A DNA stretch of 64,000 bases from Candidatus Gottesmanbacteria bacterium RIFCSPHIGHO2_02_FULL_39_11 (GCA_001779195.1 MFJL01000026.1:3226-67225); one strand, 5' to 3'. Shown: positions 6,250 through 24,204, numbered from the stretch's first letter. Notes: a model not told the origin generated them from the letters alone. Numbers and translations are program-made.

Positions 6250-6465
6250 TTATGCTTCTAAAACGGTATAGGGCATACCCGACAGTGCAGTGATAATATC
6301 GGACACTTTCAACTCATTGCTGCTTGTTATCGTCGTTTCTCCGTTATTGTTTTTAATCGCCACATCTGTAACTCCTGTAAGCCTTCCCACTTTTTTCTTA
6401 ATCAATTTGACACAAGCTTCGCAGGTTATCCCTGAAATTTTTAAAGTTAAAGTGTAATTATTCAT
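6250..6465 (-). CDS. copZ: copper chaperone (HMA domain protein, CopZ-like)
   Basis: 71 aa with GITCEACV metal-binding motif; its start overlaps copA. Confidence 0.8.
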   Translation of the reverse strand: MNNYTLTLKISGITCEACVKLIKKKVGRLTGVTDVAIKNNNGETTITSSNELKVSDIITALSGMPYTVLEA

Positions 6466-8228
6466 AGAACTTTGATAACTCCCCGTGGTACACCCATTGC
6501 ACAGGTAATAGGATAATTTCCTTTTCCATTCGGGGTGAAATTGAAGGTAATTGTTTTACCTTTCGCCAAATATTGAGGATCATCTACCAGTCTTGGAATA
6601 GTTATGGTTCCCATGCACCCCGACCCGTTATCTTTAACATCTATTTCCATCCTTACCGGTGTTCCAGCTTTTACAGAAAACTCATTAGGAGAAATATCCC
6701 GGTCAGCAGTATATGTTGTTTTTATAACCTGTACGGCACCTTCCCGTTTTGCTTCTTGGGCAACAACGGGTTGTTGGACAGCTTGTTTTGCCCCTCCTCC
6801 ACAACCGCAACCGCCCGTCCCGCATGATACTCCGCTTTTTGCCGGCGGTGCCTGCGCAACTGCATCCGTACTTTTTTCAACTACATTAAAAACTCCCGTA
6901 TACATGCCCATACTGCATGAGAAAGGCAATCTTCCAACGTCTGTTGGGGTAAATTCTATGGTATTGTCACCTAATTCAAGATTTTTCCGTATGCCAAGGC
7001 GGGATATAATGATGGCACTGGCACACGTATTAGAATCAGTTGAGTTGATTTCCCATTTCACCGGAACATCTTTTACGACAGTAAATATATTCGGATTATA
7101 TCCGTTTGCCGACTGCGTCATCTTAACGACTTGAAAACCATCCACAATAGTATTGACAGAAGATGCAGCCAATACATTCTGATTAGAAGAAAAAAGATAT
7201 GCAGGAGATAATCCCATCAAATTTAATCCGTTTTGAGCATTGAAAAACGCTAGTATTGTAACGACAACACCGGCAAATTTGAAGAATTTTTGGGCAAAAT
7301 ATCCTTTGATGACGGATGTCACTCCTCCGACACCTAATAATCCGGGAGCAGTACCCAAAGCAAAAATACCCATGATGGTGGCCCCTCTGATAAAACTGCC
7401 GCTACTCATAGCCAAAAGCTGCATCGCTTGGGTAAAACCGCAGGGAAGAAAAAAAGTCAATCCGCCCAGGATGAATGCATTTTTATGACTGTATTCTTTA
7501 TTCTGCTGCTCTTTTATCCCCAACGCCTTACTTATTCCTGTTGGAAGAGTGAAATGGGCATTGCTGATCCTGGGAAACAGTCCGGTAAGTTGCAATCCGA
7601 GCATCAACATAACCAGAGCTACTCCCAAGGTAAGAAGACCTAAACCAAAGCCAGATAGCTGAAAAAATGATCCGATTAGGCCAATAACACCGCCCAGTAT
7701 TACGTAAGAGGTGATTCTTCCGAAATTAAAAAAAAGATGGGGTTTAAATTTTTCATACACTGATGCATTAGGATTTTTTTCTGAAAAACGGGCAGATACC
7801 CCAAGCACCAGACCTCCCACAAGCGCCATGCAGGTAGAGAGACCTGCGGTTATTCCTATCAGGAATATGGGTATCAGACCGGACGGACGGGAAATAGAAG
7901 TACTGAATAATTTGTTTAAACCAAATATATCGACAAGAATAAAAAGAAAGGAAAGCACAATAACTGAAATGATAATATCTTTGTAGTCATTAATGTTTTT
8001 AGAAAAAAGCGGTTTTTCCTCCTCGTAACCAACTTGATACCCTGCCCGCTCTACTGACTGTATAATTGTGCCATCATTTAAGTAGTTTTCGTGATAAAGT
8101 TCTGCACATTTTTTCCGCTGGGAAACGGTAACTTTTTTCACTCCGGGGATGTCTTTTAATTCATCCTCAATTAAAAGTTCGCAGGATCTGCAGTGCATTC
8201 CTTGAATTGGAACAGTAGTGATTCTCAT
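6462..8228 (-). CDS. fusion protein: N-terminal HMA domain, polytopic permease-like membrane domain, Cys/Gly-rich linker, two C-terminal cupredoxin-like domains
   Basis: N-terminal GMHCRSC HMA motif; ~8 predicted TM helices (TauE/SafE- or CcdA-like); GCGCGGG linker. Two tandem beta-rich repeats end in C..M motifs (SCSMGM, TCAMG) reminiscent of cupredoxin/CopC-like copper sites. Confidence 0.5.
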   Translation of the reverse strand: MRITTVPIQGMHCRSCELLIEDELKDIPGVKKVTVSQRKKCAELYHENYLNDGTIIQSVERAGYQVGYEEEKPLFSKNINDYKDIIISVIVLSFLFILVDIFGLNKLFSTSISRPSGLIPIFLIGITAGLSTCMALVGGLVLGVSARFSEKNPNASVYEKFKPHLFFNFGRITSYVILGGVIGLIGSFFQLSGFGLGLLTLGVALVMLMLGLQLTGLFPRISNAHFTLPTGISKALGIKEQQNKEYSHKNAFILGGLTFFLPCGFTQAMQLLAMSSGSFIRGATIMGIFALGTAPGLLGVGGVTSVIKGYFAQKFFKFAGVVVTILAFFNAQNGLNLMGLSPAYLFSSNQNVLAASSVNTIVDGFQVVKMTQSANGYNPNIFTVVKDVPVKWEINSTDSNTCASAIIISRLGIRKNLELGDNTIEFTPTDVGRLPFSCSMGMYTGVFNVVEKSTDAVAQAPPAKSGVSCGTGGCGCGGGAKQAVQQPVVAQEAKREGAVQVIKTTYTADRDISPNEFSVKAGTPVRMEIDVKDNGSGCMGTITIPRLVDDPQYLAKGKTITFNFTPNGKGNYPITCAMGVPRGVIKVL

Positions 8229-8639: not shown

Positions 8640-10826
8640 TCAAATTGAAATTAAATCTTTTTCTGCTCGTTTTAATAATACTGCATTTGTCGCCACAATA
8701 ATTGATGAGATACTCATAAGAAGTGCTGATATTTCAGGCCGTAATGAAATACCAAACCCAGGATATAAAATACCTGCTGCAACCGGAATTGCCAGAAGGT
8801 TATAAATCGATGCCCAAAACAGATTTTGTTTCATTTTGCGCACGGTTGCTTTGGATAATTTGATTGCTCGTAGAATATCAGCAGGATCTGATTTCATTAG
8901 GACAACTTTCGCGGTCTCAATAGCAACATCAGTACCAGCGCCAATTGCAATTCCTATATCTGCTTGTGAGAGAGCCGGAGCATCATTGACTCCATCGCCA
9001 ACCATAGCAGTAAACTTACCTTCTTTTTGTAACTTCTTAATATATGAGGCTTTGTCTTCCGGCAACACCTCAGAGAATATTCTGTCTATAGTTAATTGCT
9101 TCCCAATTGCTTCCGCAGTTTTTTTATTATCGCCTGTTATCATGGCTACTTCCAACCCCAACTCTTTCATAGCTAGGATTGCTTCTTTGGCTGTTGGTTT
9201 AATCTTATCGGCTGCTGCCGCCACGCCTGCAACTTTGCCGTCAATTGCCAAAATCATTATGGTTTTGCCCTCAGATAATAATCGGTCAATATCTTTCTGG
9301 AGTGGAGTAATATCAACTTTCCGATCATTCATGAGCTTTATGGTTCCCACAAGAACGTGCCTGCCGGAAACATACGCTTCAACGCCATGACCAGCTAAGT
9401 TTTTGAATCCCGCAACTTCACCTAGAACAAGTTTTTCTTTCTCGGCTTTTTCCAAAATAGCGTGACTTAGAGGATGACTCGATCGCTTCTCAACAGAGGC
9501 AATAAACCATAGAACCTTTTTCTCATCGTGCGATACTGATAGTATATCAATCACGGTGGGTTTGCCTTCTGTCAATGTACCCGTCTTATCAAGAACCACT
9601 GCTTGGATTTTTGATACCTGCTCAAGCGTGGGGGCATCTTTGATGAGGATATTATGTTTGGCTCCAAGACCAGTGCCTACTGCTACGGCAGTTGGAGTTG
9701 CTAGTCCAAGTGCATCCGGACAAGCAATCACGACAGTTGAAATAGCAAAGGACAGCGCAACAAGAAGTGGTTGACCCAGAATAAAAAACCAAATACCGAA
9801 TGTCAAAAGCCCACCGCCTACGGCGATTATAACAAGATATTTGGCAAACTTATCTGCTAATTTTTGCCCGGGTGCTTTTGAGTTCTGGGCAGTTTCCACC
9901 ATTTTAACAATTTGGGCAAGAGCAGTATCTTCGCCAACTTTCGTGGCTTTGAATTTGACAGAGCCGGAAGTATTGATTGAACCACCAATAACCGAATCGC
10001 CTATATTTTTAGCCACCGGAATTGACTCACCAGTAACCAGAGATTCATCAATCGCCGTCTCTCCTTCGATAATCTCGCCATCGACTGGCACTTTGTCCCC
10101 TGGTTTAAGCATAAGAATATCGCGAGACTTAACTTGTGATGTAGGTACCATTTCTTCTTTTCCATCTTTCCAAAGCCTTGCTTGGGGAGGAACGAGGTTA
10201 AATAATGCTTGGAGTGCATCGGTAGTACCCCGCCGACTTTTCATCTCCATCCAATGGCCAAAAAGCACAAAGGTAATAAGCATTACAGAGGCTTCGTAAT
10301 ACGAATCATTACTGCCTAAAATAGTTAGGACAACACTAAATCCATAGGCCGCTGTGATCCCTACCGCAATCAAAACTGCCATATTGAGAGTCTTGGCTTG
10401 AAGTGCTTTATAAGTTGAATAAAGGAAGATCCATCCGGCGTAGAAAAATACGGGTGTGGTTAACAGAAACAGAAGCCACGGTACTGGAATTGGACTTGGT
10501 AAAGTTACTCCGATAATTTTCTCCCCAAGGGGGGAATACAGGATAATGGGGATGGAAAAAAGCAGAGCGAAAAAGAATTTATTTCGGATATCTTCTTCCA
10601 TCAACTTTGCCATTTCACGACCTGCCAATCCTCCGTGCTCCATCCCCATACTCATCGTCATACTCATCTTTAATTTTTCCCATGATGACATCCCAGAAGT
10701 AGGCTTCATGACATGTCCAGCTTCTAATTTCTCACTTCTGGCTTCCAGTTCCATCCCGCATTTAGGACATGAACCAGGAATATCTGAAGAAATTTCAGGA
10801 TGCATCGGACACGTATATTTTTGCAT
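8640..10826 (-). CDS. heavy-metal (Cu) P1B-type ATPase with N-terminal CPMHPE...CPKCGM metal-binding domain and Met-rich segment; non-canonical CPD TM motif
   Basis: YTCPMHPEISSDIPGSCPKCGM (HMBD-type), MSMTMSMGMEHGG Met-rich stretch, TM motif IACPDALGLATP (CPD rather than CPC/CPH), LDKTGTLT, GDGVNDAPAL. Confidence 0.85.
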   Translation of the reverse strand: MQKYTCPMHPEISSDIPGSCPKCGMELEARSEKLEAGHVMKPTSGMSSWEKLKMSMTMSMGMEHGGLAGREMAKLMEEDIRNKFFFALLFSIPIILYSPLGEKIIGVTLPSPIPVPWLLFLLTTPVFFYAGWIFLYSTYKALQAKTLNMAVLIAVGITAAYGFSVVLTILGSNDSYYEASVMLITFVLFGHWMEMKSRRGTTDALQALFNLVPPQARLWKDGKEEMVPTSQVKSRDILMLKPGDKVPVDGEIIEGETAIDESLVTGESIPVAKNIGDSVIGGSINTSGSVKFKATKVGEDTALAQIVKMVETAQNSKAPGQKLADKFAKYLVIIAVGGGLLTFGIWFFILGQPLLVALSFAISTVVIACPDALGLATPTAVAVGTGLGAKHNILIKDAPTLEQVSKIQAVVLDKTGTLTEGKPTVIDILSVSHDEKKVLWFIASVEKRSSHPLSHAILEKAEKEKLVLGEVAGFKNLAGHGVEAYVSGRHVLVGTIKLMNDRKVDITPLQKDIDRLLSEGKTIMILAIDGKVAGVAAAADKIKPTAKEAILAMKELGLEVAMITGDNKKTAEAIGKQLTIDRIFSEVLPEDKASYIKKLQKEGKFTAMVGDGVNDAPALSQADIGIAIGAGTDVAIETAKVVLMKSDPADILRAIKLSKATVRKMKQNLFWASIYNLLAIPVAAGILYPGFGISLRPEISALLMSISSIIVATNAVLLKRAEKDLISI

Positions 10827-11606: not shown

Positions 11607-12287
11607 TTACAATTTTTTACTGGTTATACGTTTATTAAATACTTCTGCTGAAATCATTTTTACTGATGGGAAAAAGCCGGGTGTTTCTTTTTGATAGCGA
11701 ATGTATGCATCGCCAAACATTTTAATCATCTCCCTCTCTTCAACTCGCGCAAGCCGGATATATCGGAAAATAAGGATCGGGGCCATGAACAAGGTAATAA
11801 GAGTTGGCCATTGAATGAGAAAGCCAAAAATAATCAAAATAAATGCAAGATATTGCGGATGACGAATATAGTTATAGACACCCCCAATCGCGAGCCGTTG
11901 TTGTTTTTGGGCTTTATATAATACTTCCCATGCTTTACCCAGAAGGACAAGTCCGCCGATAATTAAAGCGTAGCTTGTAATATGCAGAATATTAAAATGT
12001 GGATCCCCGCCAAGACCTAACAAAGTATTAAGGATGTGGCCGTTATTATGAGTAAAATCCAAACCTATTTTGTTGCCAAAAAATGAAGTCAACAAGTAGA
12101 TAGTCAGAGGAAATCCGTACATCTCGGCAAACAGGGCAACGATGAATGCCCCAAGAATCTTGTACGTCCTCCAGTCTGTATTTGTCCTCGGCTTGAAAGC
12201 GCTCTTAATGAAATAGAGAAAAAGAATGATATTGAATATTACGAGAAACCAGTTTCCGTAGTCGTACATATAAGGAAAGTGTAACAA
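11607..12287 (-). CDS. isoprenylcysteine carboxyl methyltransferase / phospholipid methyltransferase family membrane protein
   Basis: Polytopic membrane protein with C-terminal NYIRHPQYLAFILIIFGF motif (RHPxY...E of ICMT/PEMT family). Confidence 0.55.
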   Translation of the reverse strand: MLHFPYMYDYGNWFLVIFNIILFLYFIKSAFKPRTNTDWRTYKILGAFIVALFAEMYGFPLTIYLLTSFFGNKIGLDFTHNNGHILNTLLGLGGDPHFNILHITSYALIIGGLVLLGKAWEVLYKAQKQQRLAIGGVYNYIRHPQYLAFILIIFGFLIQWPTLITLFMAPILIFRYIRLARVEEREMIKMFGDAYIRYQKETPGFFPSVKMISAEVFNKRITSKKL

Positions 12288-12353
12288 AGAATAGATTAAG
12301 AAATCGTGAGATTATTATCCAGTATTAATCAGGGTTGAACTTTTTGCTTCCAA

Positions 12354-12372
12354 TTACTACAATTAGTAGTAA
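12354..12372. promoter_or_regulatory. palindrome ttactac-aatta-gtagtaa immediately upstream of blaI/copY-like start
   Basis: Perfect 7-bp arms; ends 6 nt before the ATG at 12378. It shares the ACTAC/GTAGT core with the 13763-13781 palindrome. Confidence 0.5.
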
Positions 12373-12377
12373 CCTAT

Positions 12378-12758
12378 ATGTTTCAAAAAACACTAAGCCC
12401 TCTGGAACAAGAGATTATGACTATTGTTTGGGAACTGAAGAAGTGCTCTGTTCGGGATGTTATGGAGCAACTTAACCGGGAGAAAAAACTTGCGTATACA
12501 ACGGTTGCCACACTGCTTCAGCGCTTGTTTGAAAAGGGTCTTGTCCAGAGAGGCAGTCGAGGTACAGTACTTTCCTACATACCTAAAGTTTCCAAGGAAC
12601 TATACAGCAAAAGAACGGCTAAGTCGTTTATGCGAACGTTTGTGTCTTCTTTTGGGGAAACAGCTATCGCTTCGTTTGCCGAGTCTATTGACAAACTGCC
12701 AAAGGACAAAAAGGATTATTTGTTGCAGCTGTTGGAAAAACAAAATGAGGATAAATAA
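12378..12758 (+). CDS. BlaI/MecI/CopY-family winged-helix transcriptional repressor
   Basis: The N-terminus (LSPLEQEIMTIVWELKKCSVRDVMEQL...KLAYTTVATLLQRLFEKGLVQR) matches the penicillinase-repressor family. It has no C-terminal Cys cluster, so it is BlaI-like rather than classical CopY. Confidence 0.8.
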   Translation: MFQKTLSPLEQEIMTIVWELKKCSVRDVMEQLNREKKLAYTTVATLLQRLFEKGLVQRGSRGTVLSYIPKVSKELYSKRTAKSFMRTFVSSFGETAIASFAESIDKLPKDKKDYLLQLLEKQNEDK

Positions 12759-13731
12759 GCATTTGTTCATTTTTTCAAGTTTATTATTTCTTCTGACTGC
12801 GAGTTATTTTTTTGTTTTAGTGAAGTTTTTTCCACTACTGGTACACCATACCTTTTATTACTGTCAAGAAATGGCAAAGGTAATATCTTTGAGCCTTCCG
12901 GGGAACTGGGGAGTTGTTGTCTTTGGGATATTAATTATTTCGGTTCTTTACACCGCATTCAAATTATTTGCTACCATCGTTCAAGTTTATAAGTTTCGTC
13001 AGTTGTTGTCCCGATCCATTGTCAAGAATCATGAACTTTCAGATATTTTCAAATCTCTCAAGCTTGTAGATAAAGTGGTCGTATTACATGAAACTAAGCC
13101 ATTTGCATATTGTTTTGGAGTAAGAAACCCAAAAATCTTTATTACTATTGGTTTAATTGCAATGGTTAATAGAAAGGAACTTGAGGTTATTTTACGCCAC
13201 GAAAAGTATCATCTGGAACATCGGGATAACCTAATTTTACTGGTAGCAACATTTATTGAGTCTCTATTCCCTTTTTTCCCAATACTTACGGACCTTATCC
13301 GTATTTACAAGACAGATCGGGAATTACTAGCAGATCAGGCTGCTATCCATAGAGAAGCAGATAAACATTCCCTTTCGTCTATTTTGAAAAAACTCCTTCA
13401 ATATGAACCCGTAACACTACCTGCATTGGCTCCCGCAATTGCTGATGTTGATACACTTGAGACTCGTATAAAATCATTGCTTTCAATTAAAGTAGATTAT
13501 CCTAAGCTAGGAAAAAGAAATTCGCTTCTCAGTATAATTTCCATTGCCGCACTCATGGCGCTTATGAGAACTTCTGTACATGCAGTAGAACTTCATAGGG
13601 ACGGCTTGGATATAATGATAGTCTGTAATGGAAATGTCAGCTGCGAATCTGTCTGTAAAGACCGCAACTTGATCAAATCGCAAAGTATCAGCTCTTCGTA
13701 CACTTCTAAAAACTTCTCCGCAAACAACTGA
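12745..13731 (+). CDS. M56-family (BlaR1-like) membrane metalloprotease / antirepressor without a penicillin-binding sensor domain; His/Cys-rich extracytoplasmic tail
   Basis: HEXXH motif (RHEKYHLEHRD) between TM helices. An in-frame ATG at 12745 overlaps the repressor stop by 14 nt. After the last TM the C-terminus reads HAVELHRDGLDIMIVCNGNVSCESVC. Confidence 0.7.
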   Translation: MRINKHLFIFSSLLFLLTASYFFVLVKFFPLLVHHTFYYCQEMAKVISLSLPGNWGVVVFGILIISVLYTAFKLFATIVQVYKFRQLLSRSIVKNHELSDIFKSLKLVDKVVVLHETKPFAYCFGVRNPKIFITIGLIAMVNRKELEVILRHEKYHLEHRDNLILLVATFIESLFPFFPILTDLIRIYKTDRELLADQAAIHREADKHSLSSILKKLLQYEPVTLPALAPAIADVDTLETRIKSLLSIKVDYPKLGKRNSLLSIISIAALMALMRTSVHAVELHRDGLDIMIVCNGNVSCESVCKDRNLIKSQSISSSYTSKNFSANN

Positions 13732-13762
13732 TATTTTATCTGTTGACAAATGGTTAATATAC

Positions 13763-13781
13763 CTACTACACTTTGTAGTAG
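13763..13781. promoter_or_regulatory. palindrome ctactaca-ctt-tgtagtag (TACA-N3-TGTA) upstream of the dsbA-MCO operon, preceded by TTGACA at 13743-13748
   Basis: Perfect 8-bp arms seen in sequence. It resembles BlaI/CopY operator half-sites (TACA/TGTA). Confidence 0.55.
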
Positions 13782-13801: not shown

Positions 13802-14566
13802 ATGCCGGAAAACTTATCCACTCTGAAAATAAACACAGTGTTTGCGGGATTTTTAATCGTTGCTTCATTTATCATTGGTTCTTTATGGACAAAAGTGCAG
13901 TATCTCGAGAAGGGAGCTTCACAACCTGCGCTGGCTGCCGATAACCCAAGTGCCGATGTGCCTGCTCCAATTGTCGCTCCAGGGGATAATGGTGAGCCGG
14001 TAAAAGTATCAATTGATGACGATCCTGTATTGGGAGATAAGAACGCAAAAGTGACATTGATAGATTTTTCAGATTACGAATGTCCTTTTTGTAAACGACA
14101 TTTCGATGAAGTCTATCCACAACTGAAGAAAGACTATATTGATACGGGAAAAGTCAAAATGGTTTTTCGCGACCTTCCTTTGAGCTTTCATCAAAATGCT
14201 CCCAAAGAGGCTGAGGCCGCTGAGTGTGCAAGAAAACAAGGCGGTGACCAGATGTACTACAAGTACCACGACCAAATCTTTACCAAAACCACTTCCAACG
14301 GAACAGGCTTAGCTCTTGACCAGCTACCAGTTATAGCCAAAGACTTAGGGCTGAATATAGGTCAGTTTCAACAGTGTCTTGATTCCGGCGAATTTAAAGC
14401 GGAAGTCGATAAAGACTTAGCCGATGCAGCTAAAGTCGGGGCTAGTGGTACACCTACGTTTTTTATCGGTAAATCAACAAGCAATGGCGAGATAGACGGC
14501 ATCAAGGTGGTTGGAGCACAACCGTACAGCGCTTTTAAGACAATTATTGATGAAAAATTGAAATAA
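13802..14566 (+). CDS. DsbA-like thioredoxin-fold thiol:disulfide oxidoreductase (membrane-anchored)
   Basis: N-terminal TM segment; CPFC active site in YECPFCKRHF context; DsbA-family length. Confidence 0.7.
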   Translation: MPENLSTLKINTVFAGFLIVASFIIGSLWTKVQYLEKGASQPALAADNPSADVPAPIVAPGDNGEPVKVSIDDDPVLGDKNAKVTLIDFSDYECPFCKRHFDEVYPQLKKDYIDTGKVKMVFRDLPLSFHQNAPKEAEAAECARKQGGDQMYYKYHDQIFTKTTSNGTGLALDQLPVIAKDLGLNIGQFQQCLDSGEFKAEVDKDLADAAKVGASGTPTFFIGKSTSNGEIDGIKVVGAQPYSAFKTIIDEKLK

Positions 14567-14573
14567 TATATGT

Positions 14574-15089
14574 ATGGACAAATCAATCTTTTCCAGTCGA
14601 CTGCTTTTGCCTACAGTAATAATTTCTAGCCTCTATCTTTTAATAACAATACTTCTTATGAATCGCAGTTTAACTGTTGATACACTTTTTGGAACATACT
14701 CTCTTGACTACAAAGGTCAAATAATTATTTCACTTATAAGCGGTATGTGGACTTCGATGACTGACATGGGTTTGTTTCTTCTTGTGATAGCTTCGGTGCT
14801 TACCGGTCTTAACATTTCCCTTTTAGTAGATCGCTTGAACAAGTTAAAAAAGTTAGCGAAGCTTCATTTAGTGGTTGGAGGAAGTTCAATTCTGGGAATA
14901 GTAGGAAGCGGTTGTGCGGCCTGTGGATTGCCAATTCTAGCCCTTCTGGGATTAAGCGGAAGTGCTGCATATTTGCCTCTGAGGGGCATGGAACTGTCGT
15001 ACTTTTCTGTCTTAATATTATTATTTTCTTTTTATTTTTTGGTTAAAACTGATACCCGTCAATCTTGTACTATTAATGTAAATAAATAA
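14574..15089 (+). CDS. small polytopic membrane protein with CAAC motif (possible DsbB/VKOR-like or metal-handling partner)
   Basis: ~4 TM helices; GSGCAACGLP motif; immediately downstream of the DsbA-like gene. No confident family match. Confidence 0.3.
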   Translation: MDKSIFSSRLLLPTVIISSLYLLITILLMNRSLTVDTLFGTYSLDYKGQIIISLISGMWTSMTDMGLFLLVIASVLTGLNISLLVDRLNKLKKLAKLHLVVGGSSILGIVGSGCAACGLPILALLGLSGSAAYLPLRGMELSYFSVLILLFSFYFLVKTDTRQSCTINVNK

Positions 15090-15097: not shown

Positions 15098-16165
15098 ATG
15101 GATACAGAATTTTTACTCAAAAATAAATATGTTTTAGTTGTTCTGACAGTAGTCTTTTTGGCTGTTGTCTTTTTCCAAATAAATAAATCAAAAAGTGGCG
15201 TAACACTCAAAAACACTCCGGCGCAGTTATCGATATCAGGGGAGAATGAAACCGCACTTAAGGCTATGGAAGCGATTCCACAAGATAATGTCCCTATGGC
15301 AACAGAAAAACAAGGCCTTCAGGAATTGCCATTTAAAGTGGAAAACGGTGAGAAAGTTTTTAATCTGACTACCCAACCGGTGAAGTGGAATATTTTAAAA
15401 GATGTTACGGTGACGGCTTGGGCATACAATGGAATGATTCCCGGACCGCTCATCCGTGTAACTGAGGGGGACAAAGTGAAAATTTTAGTCAAAAATAATT
15501 TGTCTGAGCCTACCACTATCCATTGGCACGGGATTCAAGTTCCTAATAATATGGATGGTATCCCCGATGAGACGCAAAAACCCATTGCTCCGACAGAAAC
15601 ATTTACCTATGAATTCATAGCAAAGCCGGCTGGTACTTATTGGTACCATTCCCACTATGATAGCGATAAGCAAATCTCGGTGGGGCTCTCCGGTGCCTTT
15701 ATTATAGAACCGAAAGGTGGACTAGCCTCAAAGCCGGATATCGACAAAATTCTTATGCTTAATGAATGGCGTGTCATTGATGATCAAACCTATGCTGCTA
15801 TGCCGGCAACGGGAATGGATGGCAACTTCTTTACCATTAACGGTAAAGCATTCCCTGAGACTGAAACGCTGAATGTTAAGATTGGCCAGAAGGTGAGATT
15901 GCGCTTTATAGGAAGCGGCCAGATGATCCACCCGATGCATTTGCATGGATTCCCCTTTAAAATAGTGGCAACTGACGGCAACGATGTGCTGGAATCTGCC
16001 CAATGGATAAAGGATACCGTCTCGGTGGCTCCCGGTGAGCGGTATGATGTCGAATTTACACCTGATCGGCCAGGCAAATGGATGCTGCATTGTCATATAC
16101 CCCATCACACGACTAACGAACATGTTGAGCCCGGTGGGCTTATGATGATTGTTAATGTTACTTAA
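15098..16165 (+). CDS. two-domain multicopper oxidase
   Basis: All four MCO His motifs are present (HWHG, HSHY, HPMHLHG, HCHIPHH). At 355 aa it is a small two-cupredoxin-domain MCO, and it has an N-terminal TM/signal segment. Confidence 0.8.
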   Translation: MDTEFLLKNKYVLVVLTVVFLAVVFFQINKSKSGVTLKNTPAQLSISGENETALKAMEAIPQDNVPMATEKQGLQELPFKVENGEKVFNLTTQPVKWNILKDVTVTAWAYNGMIPGPLIRVTEGDKVKILVKNNLSEPTTIHWHGIQVPNNMDGIPDETQKPIAPTETFTYEFIAKPAGTYWYHSHYDSDKQISVGLSGAFIIEPKGGLASKPDIDKILMLNEWRVIDDQTYAAMPATGMDGNFFTINGKAFPETETLNVKIGQKVRLRFIGSGQMIHPMHLHGFPFKIVATDGNDVLESAQWIKDTVSVAPGERYDVEFTPDRPGKWMLHCHIPHHTTNEHVEPGGLMMIVNVT

Positions 16166-16185: not shown

Positions 16186-16596
16186 ATGAACAATAAAAAT
16201 CTACTCGTTGTGTTAGCAATTGCAGTTGGTGTTCTAGTAATACTCGGATTCAAATTGATGAATACTTCCGGTTCAAGTTCACCATCAAATAATGGAAGAA
16301 ACGCACAGGTGAGTTTAACCACTGATCCAGACCCGCTTAAAATGGGACAGGCAACCTTTATTATTGACGTTAAAGATCAGACCGGCAAGCCAGTCGATAA
16401 TGCGACGGTATTTTTCGATCTCAATATGACCGCTATGAACATGGGAACCCAACAGGGAAACGCCACTTCCCAGGGTAATGGTAGGTACGCAGCCTCCGGA
16501 AGGATGAGCATGCGCGGTCCCTGGAAAGTGACAACAAAAGTCACTATGCCGGACAGTAGTGTTGTGAATAAAGATTTTACAGTCAATGTTCCTTAA
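16186..16596 (+). CDS. YtkA-like / periplasmic copper-binding Ig-like domain protein
   Basis: N-terminal TM/signal, then a Met-rich beta domain (FFDLNMTAMNMGT...GRMSMRGPWKVTTKVTMPD) resembling the YtkA/FixH-like domain found in copper operons. Confidence 0.4.
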   Translation: MNNKNLLVVLAIAVGVLVILGFKLMNTSGSSSPSNNGRNAQVSLTTDPDPLKMGQATFIIDVKDQTGKPVDNATVFFDLNMTAMNMGTQQGNATSQGNGRYAASGRMSMRGPWKVTTKVTMPDSSVVNKDFTVNVP

Positions 16597-16632: not shown

Positions 16633-16905
16633 TTACTTATTCTTAAGAAGATGGTTATATATAAAAGCAAAGATATATCCGGTAATCCATGCAGATACTG
16701 TAAATGTAACCAGACCCCACAACATCGTACCTATCTCAGGCGGAGATCCCCTCCATATCTGAGATAGATCTGCCCCATGTGCCCACGAAATAGCAATACT
16801 TTTGTATAAGTCAGGAGCAATATAGATAAGTGAAGCACAGACTATATAGTAAGCTCCGGCCATTATTGCTAAACTATGTGCAGCAACTTTTTCATTTAAC
16901 TTCAT
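16633..16905 (-). CDS. small hydrophobic membrane protein, function unknown
   Basis: 90 aa with 2-3 predicted TM helices. Confidence 0.3.
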   Translation of the reverse strand: MKLNEKVAAHSLAIMAGAYYIVCASLIYIAPDLYKSIAISWAHGADLSQIWRGSPPEIGTMLWGLVTFTVSAWITGYIFAFIYNHLLKNK

Positions 16906-16993
16906 AAATAATCACCCCCTCTTTATATATCATACGTAATTTCATGTCTTTAGTTATTTATACATTATTTATTATGGCAACAATATGCCTCCT

Positions 16994-17173
16994 CTATTCT
17001 GACAACATTTTCCGTGACGGCGATAATACCAAAGATAGAAATATTTTATTCCTGCCTTCTTCCCTTAAAATCAAAAGATAACCTGAAGAAATCAGAAAAA
17101 AAAGAAGAGTTCCGCAGCAAAAAAGATGAAGTGCCAAAAATGGCAATATTCCGGTAATAACTTTTTTCATCAT
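16994..17173 (-). CDS. unannotated 59-aa membrane ORF with vicinal CC motif (HLFCCG)
   Basis: Hand-translated: MMKKVITGILPFLALHLFCCGTLLFF.... It starts 10 nt downstream of the 17183 stop and is below the 60-aa threshold of the ORF track. The CC-in-TM pattern recalls MerT/MerE-type metal handling. Confidence 0.3.
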   Translation of the reverse strand: MMKKVITGILPFLALHLFCCGTLLFFLISSGYLLILREEGRNKIFLSLVLSPSRKMLSE

Positions 17174-17182
17174 TAAACCCCG

Positions 17183-17401
17183 TTAATGTTTGTGACCGCC
17201 GTCCTTCATCATCCAAATGTGCATTAACGGACAAGCCAGAAGTACTGCTCCAAAGAATACCGTACTTACCGGGATTCGAAAAATAGTCACCGCTACAACC
17301 GCCAAAGCTATTAGTCCTAAACACATACCGAGCCACCTTAGAGATGAGTCTTGAGCCTTAACAGCAGAAAATGTACTCGAATGATCATTATGGTTTTCCA
17401 T
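17183..17401 (-). CDS. DUF2933-like small His-rich membrane protein
   Basis: 72 aa: an HNDHSS N-terminus, one TM helix, and C-terminal CPLMHIWMMKDGGHKH. It resembles the DUF2933 family seen in metal-resistance loci (from memory). Confidence 0.35.
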   Translation of the reverse strand: MENHNDHSSTFSAVKAQDSSLRWLGMCLGLIALAVVAVTIFRIPVSTVFFGAVLLACPLMHIWMMKDGGHKH

Positions 17402-17466
17402 ATTTTCACCTCCTTTTACTGCATTATAGAAATCAGATTATGAAGATTTCGTTAATTATGTGAAGT

Positions 17467-18864
17467 TTAAGTACCGGGAAAGGATATAGATACTGTGGTA
17501 CCATGTTCTACTTTGCTGTCGATATCTATTTTCCCGTGATGTGAGGAAATGATAGCCTGAGCAATCGCAAGACCAAGCCCGGAGCCTGAAGCTTTCTCAT
17601 TCTTTGACGCTCTATAAAACCGTTCGAAAATATGGGGCAGATCTTTTTTAGCAATTCCAGTGCCATTGTCTTTTATCTCTACATGAACCAGATTCCTTAT
17701 CTTATGTAACATAATGGTAACTGTTCCATTCTCGTGTGTGTACTTCATTGCGTTATCAACAATATTTAGTATGGCATGGAATAATTTATCTCTTTTCCCG
17801 TGTATTTTAATATCCGGCGCGGTTTCTCCGGTAATTTTAATATTTTTAGAAGAAGCCATTTTTGTCGCCAGTTCGCGGATTTCCTCCAGAAGCTCTGAAA
17901 GATCAAAAACTTCAAAATGAGCAGTAACATCCGCTTCTGACCACGCAAGATCCAAAATGTTTTCCAGCGTTTGCGACATTCTTTTATTATCGATAAGTGT
18001 TTCATCCAAAGCCTTTATATACTCATTTTTTCCTCTCTCTTTTAAGCGTATAATCTCGATATTGCTTCTTTGGGTAGCCAGAGGAGTTTTCAGTTCATGG
18101 GCTACATCTCCAATAAATTGCCGTTCCCTTTTAAATGCCGAATTTAACCGGTCCAAAAGACTGTTAAAAGTTACTGCTAATTCTTTAATCTCGTCATTAG
18201 TGTCGGGAGTATCTACTCGTTCATCAAGATTTTCGTGGCTTATCTTTTTCAGTTTTTCAGAAATGGATGCGATGGGTGCAATCGCGCTTTTGGCGAGAAG
18301 GTATCCCCCAAAAACAGTCGGCAATAAAAATACTACAAAAACGGCTCCAAGTATCAGGAGTAAATTGTTTAGAGAGTTTTCAATCACGTCAATCGGATGA
18401 CCGACAAACACAACCCCATACAACTGATTGTTTTTATAGATGGGGTCAATCCAGAAACGCATTCTAAGATCAGAAATAGTGTGATCTGTAATATGAGGGG
18501 ATTTTGCCGTCGCGGCTTGTTCAAAAAGTTGAGATAGTTTTTTATCGGATCGGTTAACGGTAACGGAACTGCCTACAATATTGCCGGTACTATCCATCAA
18601 AATTACAACCATTCCAGGAATATCGCTAAACTCAGAAAGAAAAGCATTTCGTGCCATCATCTGACATGTTTGACAGGATAGGTTCCCTTCTTTTGTGATC
18701 ACTTCAACAATCGAATTTCCGTGTGATTTAAGTGTTGCATCCGTTTGTGAATATAGAGTGTTTTTTGTAATGAGATAAAAACTGGCAAAAATGACTAGAG
18801 ATGCTATAAAAAAGGCAAGGGAATACCAAACCGTTAGACGAAATCTGACACTTCTCGTATTCAT
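17467..18864 (-). CDS. sensor histidine kinase (CusS/CopS-like)
   Basis: Two TM helices flanking a periplasmic domain containing CQTCQMM, then HAMP, HisKA H-box (HELKTPLA) and HATPase N/G boxes (DNGTGI, GSGLGL). Confidence 0.85.
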   Translation of the reverse strand: MNTRSVRFRLTVWYSLAFFIASLVIFASFYLITKNTLYSQTDATLKSHGNSIVEVITKEGNLSCQTCQMMARNAFLSEFSDIPGMVVILMDSTGNIVGSSVTVNRSDKKLSQLFEQAATAKSPHITDHTISDLRMRFWIDPIYKNNQLYGVVFVGHPIDVIENSLNNLLLILGAVFVVFLLPTVFGGYLLAKSAIAPIASISEKLKKISHENLDERVDTPDTNDEIKELAVTFNSLLDRLNSAFKRERQFIGDVAHELKTPLATQRSNIEIIRLKERGKNEYIKALDETLIDNKRMSQTLENILDLAWSEADVTAHFEVFDLSELLEEIRELATKMASSKNIKITGETAPDIKIHGKRDKLFHAILNIVDNAMKYTHENGTVTIMLHKIRNLVHVEIKDNGTGIAKKDLPHIFERFYRASKNEKASGSGLGLAIAQAIISSHHGKIDIDSKVEHGTTVSISFPGT

Positions 18865-19535
18865 ATTGATTCACTTATTTTATATCCGACACCGTGCAGG
18901 GTATGGATAAGTTTAACTTTCGCTCCTTTATCTACCTTACGCCTGATTGCAGCAAGAAAAACATCTACAACATTGCTCATGCTGTCAAAGTTATAGTCCC
19001 AGACATGTTCAATGATCATGGTTCGTGAAACAACTTCATCTTTATGACGGAGTAAAAGTTCCAGGACTGAAAATTCCTTAGGAGTAAGGGTAATAGGTTT
19101 TCCATTTCTTGTTAATAGATGTTTAATCGGATCCAGTTCCAAATCGGCAACACTTAGCGTGGGTGATGATTCCCCTTTACTGCGTCTTATAAGTGCGTGT
19201 ATTCGCGAGCGAAGTTCCAGATAGGCGAAAGGTTTTGTAATATAATCATCTGCTCCGCTATCAAGGCCGATAACTTTCTCTTCAAGCGTAGCACGGGCAG
19301 TGAGCATAAGGATTGGAGTTTTAATATTTTTCTTACGAAGTTCTTTGCAGATGGTTATCCCATCTGCTTTTGGCAGAGTTATATCCAATATAATAAGATC
19401 ATATTCTTCAGATTCTGCAAGATATTTTCCTTCTTCCCCATCATAAGCGATATCTACAGCAAATCCTTCTTCCGTAAGACCTTTTTTGACTACATTTGCA
19501 AGGCGCCTCTCATCTTCTACAAGAAGTATTCTCAT
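18861..19535 (-). CDS. OmpR-family response regulator (CusR/CopR-like)
   Basis: Receiver domain (MRILLVEDE, DLIILD) plus winged-helix trans_reg_C; it overlaps the kinase gene by 4 nt. Confidence 0.9.
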   Translation of the reverse strand: MRILLVEDERRLANVVKKGLTEEGFAVDIAYDGEEGKYLAESEEYDLIILDITLPKADGITICKELRKKNIKTPILMLTARATLEEKVIGLDSGADDYITKPFAYLELRSRIHALIRRSKGESSPTLSVADLELDPIKHLLTRNGKPITLTPKEFSVLELLLRHKDEVVSRTMIIEHVWDYNFDSMSNVVDVFLAAIRRKVDKGAKVKLIHTLHGVGYKISESI

Positions 19536-21099: not shown

Positions 21100-22066
21100 A
21101 ATAGGAAGGGGGATTTTTAAATGTTTCTTCCAAACTGTTTTTTACAGATATAAAATCCATCTTTTCTCTTTCATGAATAAGAGCTTTTATACCTTGTATA
21201 GCACCATCGTATTTTGAAAATAACTGTCTGACCGTCTGTTGTACTTCAGCATCCATACTTCCAATCTCTAACTGTAGTTGAGATTGTCTGCCTTGGCTAA
21301 AATGAACCTGGGAATTAAGCCATGCCAGTAGTCTTTGTTGATAGAATTCTTCTTTTCCCGATCTCTTTCTCCGTTCTCATTGACTGATCTAAAATACTGA
21401 GCAATATCCAGATTATCCTCTATATATAACGAGTCTGCTTCCCACCGGGCAGTTCCTGATCCTTCCATTCCCCCTCCTCCTAAATCTGCCAAGGCAACCG
21501 CCTGAGCAACTAAGTTTCCTTTGTATTTCACAAACTCCGGTTGCGTCACAGTTCCTAGGGATACGTCAAAATTGGGAACAGTCAATAGAATTGCTTCCTG
21601 TACTTTCTGTCTATCTGATTCCGTAAATACTTCCTCCCCCGTTTCTTTATTAACCCCTGTCATATATTCTATCGCCAACTTGGCGCTGGACTGTTCATTA
21701 TTTCCCAAAGCACGTTTTCTTTTTACCATTGCCCGCCCTTTAGCATCTTCTTACCGGATTCGGCTTCCAATTCTGGACCGTATCATGCCATGCCGCGGCA
21801 AATTTGGCCAGACCAATATCTCTCTCTGTGACTTTATGTGAATTGGGGTTTGCCTGTCTTACTGCATTCAGGATACTTTCGCTCCGATGCATCACCCCTT
21901 GTGTATGAATTCTTATATGGTATGACAATCGGTTTTCGAGATTGGGATTTCTTTCAAAGTTTTCTTCAATTCTGGATAAGGCAGATGAAATCCCCCGTGC
22001 GATTGAGGCGTTGAATTTTTGTTCGTGTGATAAATTCCCTTCTGAAGGTTGAATCGTTTCAGTCAT
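21100..22066 (-). pseudogene. probable frameshifted gene (three consecutive same-strand ORF fragments; HD-like H...HD motif in the N-terminal fragment)
   Basis: ORFs 21740-22066 and 21268-21729 are separated by 10 nt. Protein-like coding in a third frame continues below 21268 to ~21100. The pattern H..H...AAWHD suggests an HD phosphohydrolase. Confidence 0.25.
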
Positions 22067-22149
22067 TATGGGTGAATTATTTCATAAGAAGGAACAAGAA
22101 ATCAAATGGAGCTCTTCCTGATAAAAATATGGTTTTGCTTTTCATAGAA

Positions 22150-22398: not shown

Positions 22399-22401
22399 TT
22401 T

Positions 22402-22656: not shown

Positions 22657-22762
22657 ACCTAAAATGTACAACATTATGTACAAGATGTCAAGAGGAGATA
22701 TAACCACTATTTGCGCAAGTTAAAAACAAAATGCAGAATTTCATATGCAAGATCTTTCCTTT

Positions 22763-23182: not shown

Positions 23183-23260
23183 ATTAGGCTGGGTTTACAT
23201 ATTCTGTTAGAACTTATTTTATTAATTTTTAAGTATATATTTCAACAAAATATACTGTCA

Positions 23261-24029: not shown

Positions 24030-24204
24030 ACATTTATTATATACTACTTTTCATTTTTTTTGTTTTAGTCATCGCTTGATCAATTAATATATCAACAAAA
24101 AAGGATAAAAACATAAATCCTAAAATCCTCCACCCTCCAGGTGGGGATGACTATTAGGGTCTATTTCTCACCCAACTAACAAGAAATATTGTACCGTATA
24201 GTTG

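Follow-up and report, generated by a model that had tools for sequence, protein, structure and literature searches.

The blaI–M56 pair and its products

The window, the whole 64-kb stretch of DNA that was analyzed, derives from the uncultured groundwater bacterium Candidatus Gottesmanbacteria. It contains a blaI–M56 gene pair that precedes a set of copper-defence genes. The features of the region are as follows.

11607–12287, minus strand: PEMT/ICMT-like membrane methyltransferase, divergent from blaI (Pfam)
12335–12363, plus strand: predicted blaI–M56 promoter, −35 TTGAAC at 12335–12340, 17-nt spacer, −10 TACAAT at 12358–12363 (consensus scan)
12355–12371, unstranded: operator 1 (putative, autoregulatory), TACTACAATTAGTAGTA, exact TACTAC-N5-GTAGTA
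12378–12758, plus strand: BlaI/PetR-like winged-helix repressor, 126 aa (Penicillinase_R, 2.4e-27)
12672–12677, plus strand: codons of S99-F100, candidate equivalent of the BlaI/MecI/PetR cleavage site (gap-free alignment to BlaI/MecI, S-F on N-F)
12745–13731, plus strand: sensor-less M56/M48 membrane metalloprotease, 328 aa (Pfam; BlaR1 sequence and fold matches)
12832–12903, plus strand: predicted extracytoplasmic TM1–TM2 loop, residues 30–53 (hydropathy, charge)
13198–13335, plus strand: predicted catalytic core, H152-E-K-Y-H156 at 13198–13212 and E193-x3-D197 at 13321–13335 (conservation, hydropathy/charge)
13522–13578, plus strand: predicted last transmembrane helix, residues 260–278 (hydropathy)
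13579–13728, plus strand: predicted extracytoplasmic tail, residues 279–328 (conservation, Cys parity, acidic composition, AF2)
13743–13772, plus strand: predicted dsbA-operon promoter, −35 TTGACA at 13743–13748, 18-nt spacer, −10 TACACT at 13767–13772 (consensus scan, 10/12 matches)
13764–13780, unstranded: operator 2 (putative), TACTACACTTTGTAGTA, exact TACTAC-N5-GTAGTA
13802–14566, plus strand: DsbA-like protein with thioredoxin fold and membrane anchor (CPFC), at the head of the operon (Thioredoxin_4, 4e-30; DSBA, 2.4e-18)
14574–15089, plus strand: membrane protein, 171 aa, with an invariant G-S-G-C-A-A-C-G (motif)
15098–16165, plus strand: two-domain multicopper oxidase (Cu-oxidase_3, 1.9e-42; Cu-oxidase_2, 7.1e-33)
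16186–16596, plus strand: exported YtkA-like protein, closing the operon (YtkA, 3.5e-14)

The repressor and protease genes overlap by 14 nt, with the protease ATG at 12745 and the repressor TAA ending at 12758. Upstream of the pair lies a copper island encoding two P1B ATPases, an HMA protein, an HMA–DsbD_2–cupredoxin fusion, and a CDF transporter, and the PEMT/ICMT-like gene heads the genes for the CDF protein and the HMBD-type P1B ATPase. The module is kept in about 60 Patescibacteria loci, where the gene order blaI–M56–dsbA is recurrent: a repressor gene lies directly 5′ of M56 in all 60 family loci that have room for one, and a dsbA-like gene directly 3′ of M56 in 53 of 57. No second blaI–M56 pair was found elsewhere in the 64-kb window; such a second pair is present in the loci of three relatives (L036, L045, and L049). 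The repressor, the protease, their 14-nt overlap, the tail, the palindromes, and the downstream genes all lie where the initial annotation of this DNA had placed them.

The repressor matches 114 of the 115 positions of the PF03965 (Penicillinase_R) profile and scores 96 bits (cut-off 22.6), and its nearest solved structures are MecI and BlaI. The Penicillinase_R winged helix is followed by a predicted C-terminal dimerization helix that contains the protease-sensitive-site motif. There is only one Cys (C23), none being located in the C-terminal half, and C23 is found in most repressor orthologues and missing from several. The CopY C-terminal CxCx4CxC cluster is absent from this protein and from more than 60 orthologues, and the NCBIfam CopY/TcrY model (TIGR02698) yielded 48 bits, compared with a cut-off of 121.95. 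The protein is hence BlaI-like and devoid of the CopY cluster, as initially annotated, and direct CopY-type copper sensing by the repressor is ruled out, as the cluster occurs in no orthologue. The stretch A-S-F-A-E/Q-S, which includes S99-F100, is kept across more than 60 orthologues, and the PetR counterpart, at the degradation site marked in that protein, is A-A-F-A-D-S. By analogy, the repressor would be cut at or near S99|F100, probably by its partner M56 protease.

The protease matches Peptidase_M56 (2.6e-13; 50.2 bits for PF05569, cut-off 31) and Peptidase_M48 (2.1e-9), with no further domain, and its homologues begin at the same Met. The HEKYH motif comprises residues 152–156, and a hydrophobic re-entrant segment (residues 163–181), K/R-rich on both flanks, separates the two zinc-ligand motifs. 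None of the 187 aligned relatives departs from H152, E153, E193, or D197 (100%), and only two, with Gln, depart from H156 (99%); R241 is likewise invariant. Among solved structures, BlaR1 is the best sequence match, the family profile matching residues 100–324 of 8EXP (9.3e-14; 54.5 bits); it is also the top Foldseek match to the AF2 model (pLDDT 84), and its cryo-EM structures give the best fold matches. Profile matches and alignments thus support both the domain identities and the intactness of the catalytic residues. With these near-invariant residues and the conserved A-S-F-A-E-S stretch, the pair is built like a BlaI/BlaR-type proteolytic switch, as had been proposed.

A C-terminal penicillin-binding sensor domain is absent from the protease, in agreement with the initial annotation: the 50 residues that follow the last helix have no Pfam match, all of about 190 relatives are 285–345 aa long, and the NCBIfam model blaR1_generic gave 31 bits versus a cut-off of 400. 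A response to β-lactams is ruled out, given the lack of this domain and of a β-lactamase among the targets.

In Synechocystis sp. PCC 6803, degradation of the BlaI/CopY-family repressor PetR by PetP, a sensor-less membrane protease of the M48/M56 type, requires copper, in vivo as well as in extracts (Garcia-Canas et al., bioRxiv 10.1101/2020.07.31.226407; PNAS 2021). The window repressor is 30% identical to Synechocystis PetR (65.9 bits) and 23% identical to Staphylococcus aureus BlaI (49.7 bits), and the protease profile scores 74 and 61 bits with two PetP homologues, compared with the BlaR1 score given previously; identity between the protease and PetP is 23%. By these scores, the copper-dependent PetR/PetP pair is the nearest characterized relative, ahead of BlaI/BlaR1.

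Operators and the predicted regulon

Exact TACTAC-N5-GTAGTA occurs twice in the 64 kb, whereas 100 shuffles give an expectation of 0.00. The two copies lie within the palindromes ttactac-aatta-gtagtaa (12354–12372) and ctactaca-ctt-tgtagtag (13763–13781), and both −10 hexamers are located inside the operators. The TTGACA that had been noticed beside the second palindrome is the predicted −35 element of the dsbA-operon promoter, 18 nt from the TACACT inside that palindrome. In sequence, these are dyads of the TACA/TGTA type that overlap the promoters they would regulate, and the repressor is predicted to bind them. The geometry of the sites predicts repression only.

The operator, TACTACA-N3-TGTAGTA (17 bp), recurs at both promoters in relatives. 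CTACA-N3-TGTAG is found at the operator-1 position in 51 of 60 family loci and between M56 and the next gene in 55 of 60, 50 of the latter copies being perfect, so that the conservation of the palindromes extends to both promoters. The related loci that keep the operators include proteases with identities to the window M56 protein as low as 33%. The layouts TTGaaa ... CTACAAT.TGTAGTA upstream of blaI and TTGACA ... TACTACACT.TGTAGTA at the dsbA promoter are kept as well. Together, these comparisons support the predicted overlap of operators and promoters and the conservation of gene order and operators.

Further operators, for example before the ATPase genes, were not found in the window at up to one mismatch to CTACA-N3-TGTAG; TACACTATGTA at 47189 was considered and rejected, as it is without outer arms. 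A two-component system and an ArsR regulator are encoded near the ATPase genes, which have no operator of their own. Operator 1 also faces the divergent PEMT/ICMT-like gene, an arrangement that is kept in six relatives (L002–L006 and L013), with the operator 30–67 nt from the start of this gene. A consensus scan revealed no minus-strand promoter for the PEMT-like gene overlapping operator 1, and control of the PEMT/ICMT-like operon by this operator is possible.

The most constant operator target is the DsbA-like gene and not a copper gene. The product of the gene that follows it is usually a membrane protein with CxxC or one of the DsbD_2 type. In the window, this is the CAAC membrane protein, for which no Pfam or NCBIfam match was found and all homologues of which are unnamed; its AF2 model has a pLDDT of 68 overall and below 50 at the CAAC segment. 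In relatives, operator copies stand directly before genes for HMBD-type P1B ATPases (L002, L049, and L052), the multicopper oxidase (its own copy in L005, L006, L008, and L012), DsbD_2–cupredoxin fusions, YtkA, DUF305, CsoR-family and HMA proteins, and second DsbA-like proteins. Within 8 kb of the module, a P1B ATPase gene is present in 28 of 35 loci and at least one copper gene in 33 of 35. The copper-gene content of the predicted regulon in relatives is supported by these data, and the link to copper genes that the initial annotation drew from one locus holds across genomes.

We consider it somewhat better than an even chance (roughly 55%) that the pair is a PetR/PetP-like proteolytic derepression switch over a copper and disulfide-stress regulon. 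Two of the observations above speak against this reading, namely the lack of operators at the ATPase genes of the window and the constancy of the DsbA-like gene as a target, and so does the low identity to PetR/PetP. At rest, repressor dimers would occupy the two 17-bp operators, each of which contains a −10 box, and would silence both blaI–M56 and the downstream operon, which encodes the DsbA-like and CAAC proteins, the multicopper oxidase, and the YtkA-like protein. Upon a signal from outside the cytoplasmic membrane, the gluzincin site at the cytoplasmic face would be switched on and the repressor cut in its dimerization helix; the cut repressor would then leave the DNA, and both operons would be transcribed.

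The regulon also bears on a reading in which copper is not the signal, the pair being a general BlaIR-like system for envelope stress or another ligand, such as CenIR or PvmSR, that happens to control some genes of the copper island. BlaR homologues without a sensor or with an odd one are common and regulate varied genes (PMC13492132; bioRxiv 10.64898/2026.08.03.742534), and in relatives the operator is also seen before genes for an M23 peptidase and a Cys-rich protein. However, the association with copper genes is near universal (the 33 of 35 loci), the operator marks many copper families, and the characterized pair closest by score depends on copper. We therefore regard a copper-independent signal of this kind as improbable.

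The predicted ectodomain and the nature of the signal

In the proteolytic switch that we favor, the signal would be registered by the outward-facing parts of the protease. These are the TM1–TM2 loop, which carries H34, H35, and C40 (codon at 12862–12864), and the tail, of which residues 279–304 read HAVELHRDGLDIMIVCNGNVSCESVC. The last transmembrane helix has counterparts in PetP, where it aligns with the final helix, and in BlaR1, where it aligns with the helix in front of the sensor domain; the start of the tail coincides with the start of the BlaR1 extracellular sensor domain. Lys and Arg make up 4–6% of the loop and tail core, versus 16–17% of the cytoplasmic parts. Homology and charge bias thus place the tail outside the cell, as initially annotated, and the alignment of relatives indicates that the tail is kept in orthologues.

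The tail would begin with a β-hairpin, E282-x-H284-x4-D289 ... C294, followed by C300-x3-C304. In the 187 relatives, conservation amounts to 71% for E282, 67% for H284, 65% for D289, 91% for C294, 81% for C300, and 79% for C304, and it reaches 98% for C40 in the loop. A His is present in the loop of 161 of 181 members and in the tail core of 156 of 181. Judged by the alignment, the conserved core of the tail is the E-x-H-x4-D hairpin, which AF2 models with moderate confidence (residues 279–294, pLDDT ~63–73); confidence for the loop is low (45–56). In some distant members, the tail is rich in His, as in EVHHEEHD.

The initial annotation had described the tail as a His2/Cys3 metal cluster, a description that does not survive the comparison with relatives. 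Residue 279 is His in only 16% of them, and the number of tail Cys residues is three in 134 of 181 members, one in 43, and two in only 2. When the loop Cys40 is included, the outward-facing Cys residues add up to an even total (four or two) in 98% of members; those that lack Cys294 have a single Cys elsewhere in the tail. This pattern points to disulfide pairs rather than to a three-thiolate site and makes it less likely that thiolates bind a metal in the resting state. It suggests that the outward Cys residues are paired as disulfides.

Such pairing lends itself to a different explanation, a thiol–disulfide feedback in which the Cys40–tail Cys pair and C300–C304 are substrates of the co-regulated DsbA-like protein. 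Reduced or mispaired, they would leave the protease active, so that the repressor is removed and DsbA rises; oxidized, they would switch it off, and copper would matter only insofar as it is one of the causes of disulfide stress. Periplasmic systems that isomerize or reduce disulfides, e.g., DsbC and ScsB/ScsC, are required for copper tolerance. The even Cys number and the replacement Cys in tails without Cys294 are in line with this feedback, as are the DsbA-like gene being the most constant target (53 of 57 loci, 50 perfect sites) and the CxxC or DsbD_2-type protein usually encoded next to it. Yet Cys parity fits purely structural disulfides equally well, and the E-x-H-x4-D motif and the His enrichment are left unexplained. 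Moreover, genes whose products take no part in forming disulfides, namely those for copper ATPases, the multicopper oxidase, DUF305, and CsoR, are also preceded by operators, and two loci without an intact neighboring dsbA (L057, where it is missing, and L015, where only an 80-aa remnant without CxxC is left) keep both the four-Cys ectodomain and the copper genes. On balance, this feedback seems unlikely, if a serious contender.

Copper could also be sensed in the cytoplasm, at the active-site region of the protease or on its substrate; for instance, Cu(I) on Cys123 of the protease or Cys23 of the repressor would make the repressor cleavable, and the tail would be a structural cap. Cys123 (A-x-C-F-G), in the cytoplasmic protease domain beside the active-site strand, is 95% conserved and specific to the family, there being no Cys at this place in PetP or BlaR1, and Cys23 is shared by most repressor orthologues. 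In PetP itself, copper could act on either side of the membrane, the assay having been carried out in whole extracts, in which both membrane faces are accessible (bioRxiv 10.1101/2020.07.31.226407). On the other hand, a single thiol per protein would make for poor Cu(I) binding, Cys23 is missing from several orthologues, and the strong conservation of the outward loop Cys and tail hairpin would have no explanation. In addition, some genomes have a CsoR-family gene under the operator, next to which a second cytoplasmic sensor would be redundant. We give cytoplasmic sensing little weight.

Returning to the outward-facing sensor, the signal reaching the proteolytic switch would be copper or copper-linked thiol stress, copper stress being the most likely, and it would be read by the loop (Cys40, His34/35) together with the tail hairpin (E-x-H-x4-D, Cys294, C-x3-C). 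Copper could bind to the His/carboxylate hairpin or act on the Cys40–tail Cys pair. More tentatively, and well short of even odds, loop and hairpin may constitute a self-contained extracytoplasmic copper sensor, in which copper on the hairpin or on a Cys40–Cys294 tether would move the last helix relative to TM1/TM2 and so open the BlaR-type active site. The minimal form of this putative sensor could be Cys40 plus some 18 tail residues, P-x-x-A-x-E-L-H-x-x-G-x-D-x4-C.

Regulated proteolysis of BlaI-type repressors by membrane M56 proteases is a general signaling scheme, and where the sensor-less members, including PetP, read their signal is a question for the field. The present family offers a compact, testable case, with an outward element of 20–50 residues, few conserved residues, a 17-bp operator, and a regulon that can be read across some 60 genomes. 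If the ectodomain is indeed the sensor, it would give a sensor-less BlaR-type protease a defined sensing site for the first time, and in Microgenomates-type Patescibacteria the module would be the chief regulator of the response to copper stress, standing in some genomes above a CsoR-family regulator. To our knowledge, Patescibacteria do not grow in pure culture, and very little has been learned about their regulation; with this module, their copper and disulfide homeostasis would have a regulator predicted for the first time. It would also extend PetRP-type control from a photosynthetic cofactor swap to copper resistance proper.

Relation to characterized repressor–protease systems

Among the papers covered by a literature search for BlaI/BlaR in Patescibacteria, none describes such a system. 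Elsewhere, BlaI/BlaR1 and MecI/MecR1 of staphylococci and Bacillus share with the window an M56 gluzincin with HEXXH and EXXXD motifs and an adjoining Penicillinase_R repressor; the repressor aligns over its full length, and the dyad is of the TACA/TGTA type. In contrast, the window pair has no penicillin-binding sensor domain and no β-lactamase or PBP2a target, its dyad spacing is one base longer, and the first ~55 residues of its protease (TM1 and loop) do not align with BlaR1.

CopY/TcrY of the Lactobacillales belongs to the same winged-helix family, controls copper genes, and uses a similar dyad, the cop box TACAnnTGTA (PMC7253601), with a spacing of N2 compared with N3 in the window. Unlike the window repressor, CopY senses copper itself, through its C-terminal CxCx4CxC, and has no partner protease. 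Other sensor-less pairs, as judged from their descriptions, are BlaI/BlaR of Mycobacterium tuberculosis and Mycobacterium abscessus, CenIR of Clostridioides difficile, and PvmSR of Pseudomonas aeruginosa, which combine an M56 protein lacking the transpeptidase domain with a BlaI-type repressor and have non-β-lactam targets; as described, however, none of them has a regulon connected with copper, and their ectodomains differ from that of the window protease or are disordered.

PetR/PetP is the nearest to the window pair by score. Both consist of a BlaI-family repressor without the CopY Cys residues and an M48/M56 protease without a penicillin-binding domain, encoded by overlapping genes in one operon (for PetRP, as also seen in L070 and L071). 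Both have a Phe-containing motif, A-A-F-A-D-S in PetR and A-S-F-A-E-S in the window, and half-sites 5 nt apart, GAC-N5-GTC and TAC-N5-GTA, respectively. Both are linked to copper, the window by gene context. By this analogy, repressor cleavage and copper dependence would extend to the Patescibacteria family. The view in the initial annotation that no copper-sensing mechanism of this kind had been described is therefore set aside by the PetR/PetP precedent (bioRxiv 10.1101/2020.07.31.226407; commentary on PetRP, PMC7896320).

The two systems differ in their outward parts and in their targets. PetP is tailless: its chain stops 2–4 residues past the last helix (...PLHIK, ...PFHC). Its proposed copper ligands are two Met in the TM2–TM3 loop (bioRxiv 10.1101/2020.07.31.226407); the PetP loops, MGCGQMFG and MGYHGQMWG, contrast with HH-x-x-YYC-Q-E-M in the window, where the Met pair is not matched, M43 is present in only 37% of relatives, and the conserved loop residue is Cys40. 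Given the low identity, the unmatched Met ligands, and the missing tail, the sensing site of PetP cannot be transferred to the window protease, whose family is marked instead by the invariant Cys of the loop, the conserved hairpin tail, and apparently paired Cys residues. The PetR regulon comprises petE, petJ, and two small genes and serves the plastocyanin/cytochrome c6 swap and not copper resistance, PetR acting as an activator as well (bioRxiv 10.1101/2020.07.31.226407; PMC10141476), and a 2023 review places copper homeostasis outside the scope of PetRP (PMC10141476). The predicted targets of the window pair are copper-resistance and Dsb genes, without petE or petJ. The type of mechanism is thus already known, and what is new here is the ectodomain, the regulon, and the lineage: the module is a widely conserved relative of the cyanobacterial PetR/PetP switch, which copper triggers, and differs from it in its small outward-facing putative sensor element.

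The repressor–protease pair and its copper island

The pair is organized as the initial annotation described it: blaI, encoding a 126-residue repressor, overlaps by 14 nt the gene for a 328-residue M56 membrane protease with an HEKYH motif (residues 152–156), and the genes assigned downstream are present on the same strand. A hypothetical protein of Candidatus Gottesmanbacteria RIFCSPHIGHO2_02_FULL matches the protease at 100% identity, which places the window in a Patescibacteria (CPR) genome. Upstream, six genes on the opposite strand encode a PEMT/ICMT-like methyltransferase, a CDF transporter, an HMBD-type P1B ATPase, an HMA–DsbD_2–cupredoxin fusion, a small HMA protein, and a second P1B ATPase.

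Features of the copper island and its flank (window coordinates)
6462–8228, minus strand: 588-aa fusion protein: HMA, DsbD_2 (membrane), and a pair of cupredoxin-like domains; Gly/Cys-rich linker, SCGTGGCGCGGG
11607–12287, minus strand: PEMT/ICMT-like methyltransferase, divergent from blaI
12378–12758, blaI: BlaI/MecI/CopY repressor; full-length Penicillinase_R match, E 2.4e-27
ATG at 12745, overlapping blaI: protease; Peptidase_M56 (2.6e-13) and Peptidase_M48 (2.1e-9) matches
13802–14566, same strand as blaI, downstream of the protease gene: membrane-anchored DsbA-like protein
14574–15089, same strand as blaI: 171-aa membrane protein with GSGCAACG, no family match
15098–16165, same strand as blaI: two-domain multicopper oxidase
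16186–16596, same strand as blaI: YtkA-like protein
16633–19535, minus strand: a kinase–regulator pair (histidine kinase and response regulator) plus small membrane proteins with DUF5676 and DUF2933, flanking the operon
22150–22707: small paired ORFs resembling a toxin–antitoxin pair
26349–26422, minus strand: tRNA-Gln, the sole tRNA of the window

Among related loci (designated L001–L071), the PEMT/ICMT-like gene accompanies that of the HMBD-type copper ATPase; it is oriented divergently to blaI in the window, L002–L006, and L013 and lies on the same strand, between ytkA and the ATPase gene, in L007 and L008. Nine of 35 relatives carry genes for the kinase, response regulator, and DUF2933 protein close to the module. 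Just beyond the island (22000–30000), G+C falls from about 0.40 to 0.34; this stretch, which contains the paired ORFs and the tRNA gene, may be an island boundary.

Alignment of the repressor with MecI and BlaI is gap-free and puts its S99–F100 at the position of the staphylococcal N–F cleavage site (N101–F102). The S99–F100 dipeptide lies within A-S-F-A-E/Q-S, one of the most strongly conserved segments across more than 60 orthologs. None of the orthologs examined has a C-terminal Cys cluster, as had been noted for the window repressor, and the score with the CopY/TcrY model falls far short of the cut-off; CopY-type direct copper sensing by the repressor was therefore ruled out.

Operators and the predicted regulon

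Both palindromes proposed as operators, one upstream of blaI and one upstream of the dsbA-like gene, match TACTAC-N5-GTAGTA exactly and are the sole exact matches in 64 kb (0 in 100 shuffles); a scan of the window placed the operator at these two promoters only, with no further copies. Within each palindrome lies the −10 hexamer of a promoter of sigma-70-like type (TTGAAC-17-TACAAT for blaI and TTGACA-18-TACACT for dsbA), and a repressor bound there would block the promoter. The blaI −10 box (TACAAT, 12358–12363) lies about 15 nt 5′ of the ATG (12378), a spacing repeated in orthologous loci, and no Shine–Dalgarno sequence is visible before this ATG (12358–12380). The blaI mRNA is therefore probably leaderless or nearly so, with a very short leader at most.

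For comparison, 69 loci were collected from GTDB species representatives, 63 of them encoding a protease with 30% or more identity to that of the window. Of the 60 loci in which it would fit, 51 carry CTACA-N3-TGTAG 5′ of blaI, at the same distance; between the protease gene and its downstream neighbor, a site is present in 55 of 60 loci, and 50 of these sites are perfect. The −35 element is conserved at both operator-bearing promoters, and the sites are kept across loci whose proteases have as little as 33% identity to that of the window. Judged by this sequence comparison, the sites are a phylogenetic footprint, and the proposal that they are operators is borne out.

A blaI-type gene directly precedes the protease gene in 60/60 loci, and a DsbA-like gene directly follows it in 53/57. 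Where at least 4 kb is available on both sides (35 loci), a P1B ATPase is encoded within 8 kb in 28 and at least one copper gene in 33. Further operator copies were found in relatives directly before the following genes.

Additional operators in related loci
HMBD-type P1B ATPases: L002, L049, L052
Multicopper oxidase: L005, L006, L008, L012
DsbD_2–cupredoxin fusions: L030, L045, L049, L057 (HMA-less shorter versions in L030 and L057)
YtkA: L046
DUF305 proteins: L029, L030
CsoR-family repressors (Trns_repr_metal): L021:12781–13059, L050:1689–1970, L052:1271–1540
ArsR regulator and HMA protein: L045
Second DsbA-like proteins: L046, L047
M23 peptidase: L004

The family-wide regulon predicted from these positions is copper handling together with extracytoplasmic thiol chemistry. 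The operators before CsoR-family genes in three relatives suggest that an outward-looking and a cytoplasmic copper regulator are arranged hierarchically. The ATPase genes of the window, which have no operator, may instead be regulated by the neighboring two-component system or ArsR regulator. Many loci are “MAG TPA_asm” contigs (L001, L003, and others) with record titles that name uncultured Gammaproteobacteria, Pseudomonadales, or Candidatus Saccharibacteria, or, in the case of L028, Candidatus Sulfotelmatobacter; their proteins are 45–80% identical to those of Gottesmanbacteria and Woesebacteria, with shared gene order, and the titles are probably unreliable.

The protease ectodomain and the proposed switch

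Searching 1.84 billion representative proteins with the protease gave 101 clusters at E < 1e-30, all within the best 150 matches (at least 95.7 bits). Near-complete proteins among these 150 are about 290–350 residues long, the shorter entries being partial, so a sensor domain is absent throughout the family; this agrees with the absence of a penicillin-binding sensor originally reported for the window protease, whose only domain matches are Peptidase_M56 and Peptidase_M48. H152, E153, E193, and D197 are invariant in 187 aligned members, H156 is conserved in 99% (replaced by Gln in two), and R241 is invariant in alignments of 31 and 121 sequences. The family profile matches Staphylococcus aureus BlaR1 residues 100–324 (E 9.3e-14), a span that takes in the helix before the extracellular sensor domain of BlaR1, and the best fold matches of an AF2 model (pLDDT 84) are BlaR1 cryo-EM structures.

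Hydropathy indicates four hydrophobic segments. The third is flanked by both zinc-ligand motifs and is K/R-rich on either flank and must therefore be re-entrant, as in BlaR1. The predicted topology has the N-terminus inside and both the TM1–TM2 loop (residues 30–53) and the 50-residue C-terminal tail outside. Family-wide composition agrees, with K+R at 4–6% in the loop and the acidic tail core versus 16–17% in cytoplasmic parts, and the tail is thus still predicted to be extracytoplasmic.

The C-terminal region of the protease contains HAVELHRDGLDIMIVCNGNVSCESVC, in which a His2/Cys3 metal-binding cluster had been proposed, followed by 24 further residues. The ectodomain is indeed conserved: in the loop, C40 (98%), H34 (52%), and H35 (58%); in the tail region, P277 (96%), E282 (71%), H284 (67%), D289 (65%), C294 (91%), C300 (81%), and C304 (79%). 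The cluster as such fares less well, H279 being His in only 16% of members. Tails carry three Cys in 134 members, one in 43, two in 2, and four in 2, members without C294 have a single Cys elsewhere in the tail, and the number of outward-facing Cys, loop included, is even in 98%. Such parity is what disulfide pairing would produce, putatively loop-to-tail and C300–C304, and it fits static and switchable bonds alike. The shortest tails stop at C294 (P-x-x-A-x-E-L-H-x-x-G-x-D-x4-C), a segment drawn by AF2 as a β-hairpin with moderate confidence. His occurs in the tail core of 86% of members and in the loop of 89%, and some distant members have His-rich tails. Given the Cys parity, the conserved hairpin, and the His enrichment, a disulfide-tethered hairpin with a metal site made of His and carboxylate ligands is no less plausible than a thiolate site.

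The best-supported reading is a derepression switch like PetR/PetP of Synechocystis, and we put the probability of this architecture at roughly 0.8. The repressor would occlude both promoters; an extracytoplasmic signal read by the loop–tail ectodomain would activate the cytoplasm-facing zinc site, and cleavage of the repressor near S99|F100 would turn both operons on. Copper stress is the somewhat favored physiological trigger, and direct binding of copper by the ectodomain is doubtful. The main rival is a thiol–disulfide feedback sensor, re-oxidized by the DsbA-like product and affected by copper only indirectly, to which the Cys parity and the constancy of dsbA as a target both point. As the whole story, however, it sits poorly with the presence of the operator before many non-thiol copper genes and with the four-Cys ectodomain that persists without an intact neighboring dsbA in L015, where the post-operator gene (about 9040–9282) is an 80-aa remnant lacking CxxC, and in L057, which has no dsbA at that position. 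Cytoplasmic sensing through the family-specific C123 of the protease and C23 of the repressor is a lesser rival, as is an unrelated envelope signal.

Comparison with PetR/PetP and other sensor-less systems

The system is real and robustly conserved; the mechanism itself is not new. The initial annotation was wrong to regard a copper-wired BlaI/BlaR-type switch as undescribed, because PetR/PetP had already been reported. [quoted passage not shown] PetP is an M48/M56 membrane protease without a β-lactam-binding domain, the two genes overlap, and degradation of PetR, both in vivo and in extracts of Synechocystis and Escherichia coli, requires PetP and copper together; the authors suggest that copper may act at two Met in a short outward-facing loop (bioRxiv 10.1101/2020.07.31.226407). 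Our full-text literature search, with incomplete coverage, returned neither a description of such a system from Patescibacteria nor a paper on one that controls copper-resistance genes.

Using PetR from the paper's supplement and two cyanobacterial loci with PetP homologs (L070 and L071), we found that the window repressor scores higher against PetR (65.9 bits, 30% identity) than against BlaI (49.7 bits, 23%), and the protease family profile higher against the PetP homologs (74.3 and 61.3 bits) than against BlaR1 (54.5 bits). PetR has A-A-F-A-D-S at the cleavage position, and its operator, GAC-N5-GTC, has the half-site spacing of TAC-N5-GTA in the window. PetP differs in ending 2–4 residues past the last helix and in lacking a Cys40 equivalent. 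The homologs (L070:3423–4268 and L071:3423–4277) end in P-L-H-I-K and P-F-H-C just past that helix, the Pro aligning with P277 and the His lying at the position of H279; the PetRP paper does not consider this outward-facing His among the possible ligands (bioRxiv 10.1101/2020.07.31.226407). The PetR regulon is a plastocyanin/cytochrome c6 swap, unlike the copper-handling and thiol regulon predicted here, and a 2023 review stresses that PetRP drives no copper-homeostasis response (PMC10141476).

Further sensor-less BlaR-like systems, all of recent description, are BlaIR of Mycobacterium tuberculosis and M. abscessus, CenIR of Clostridioides difficile, and PvmSR of Pseudomonas aeruginosa (PMC13492132; bioRxiv 10.64898/2026.08.03.742534). 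The present system offers a cleanly defined operator and regulon and a first way into how Patescibacteria regulate metals, and its compact, conserved ectodomain could show how sensor-less BlaR proteases read their signal.
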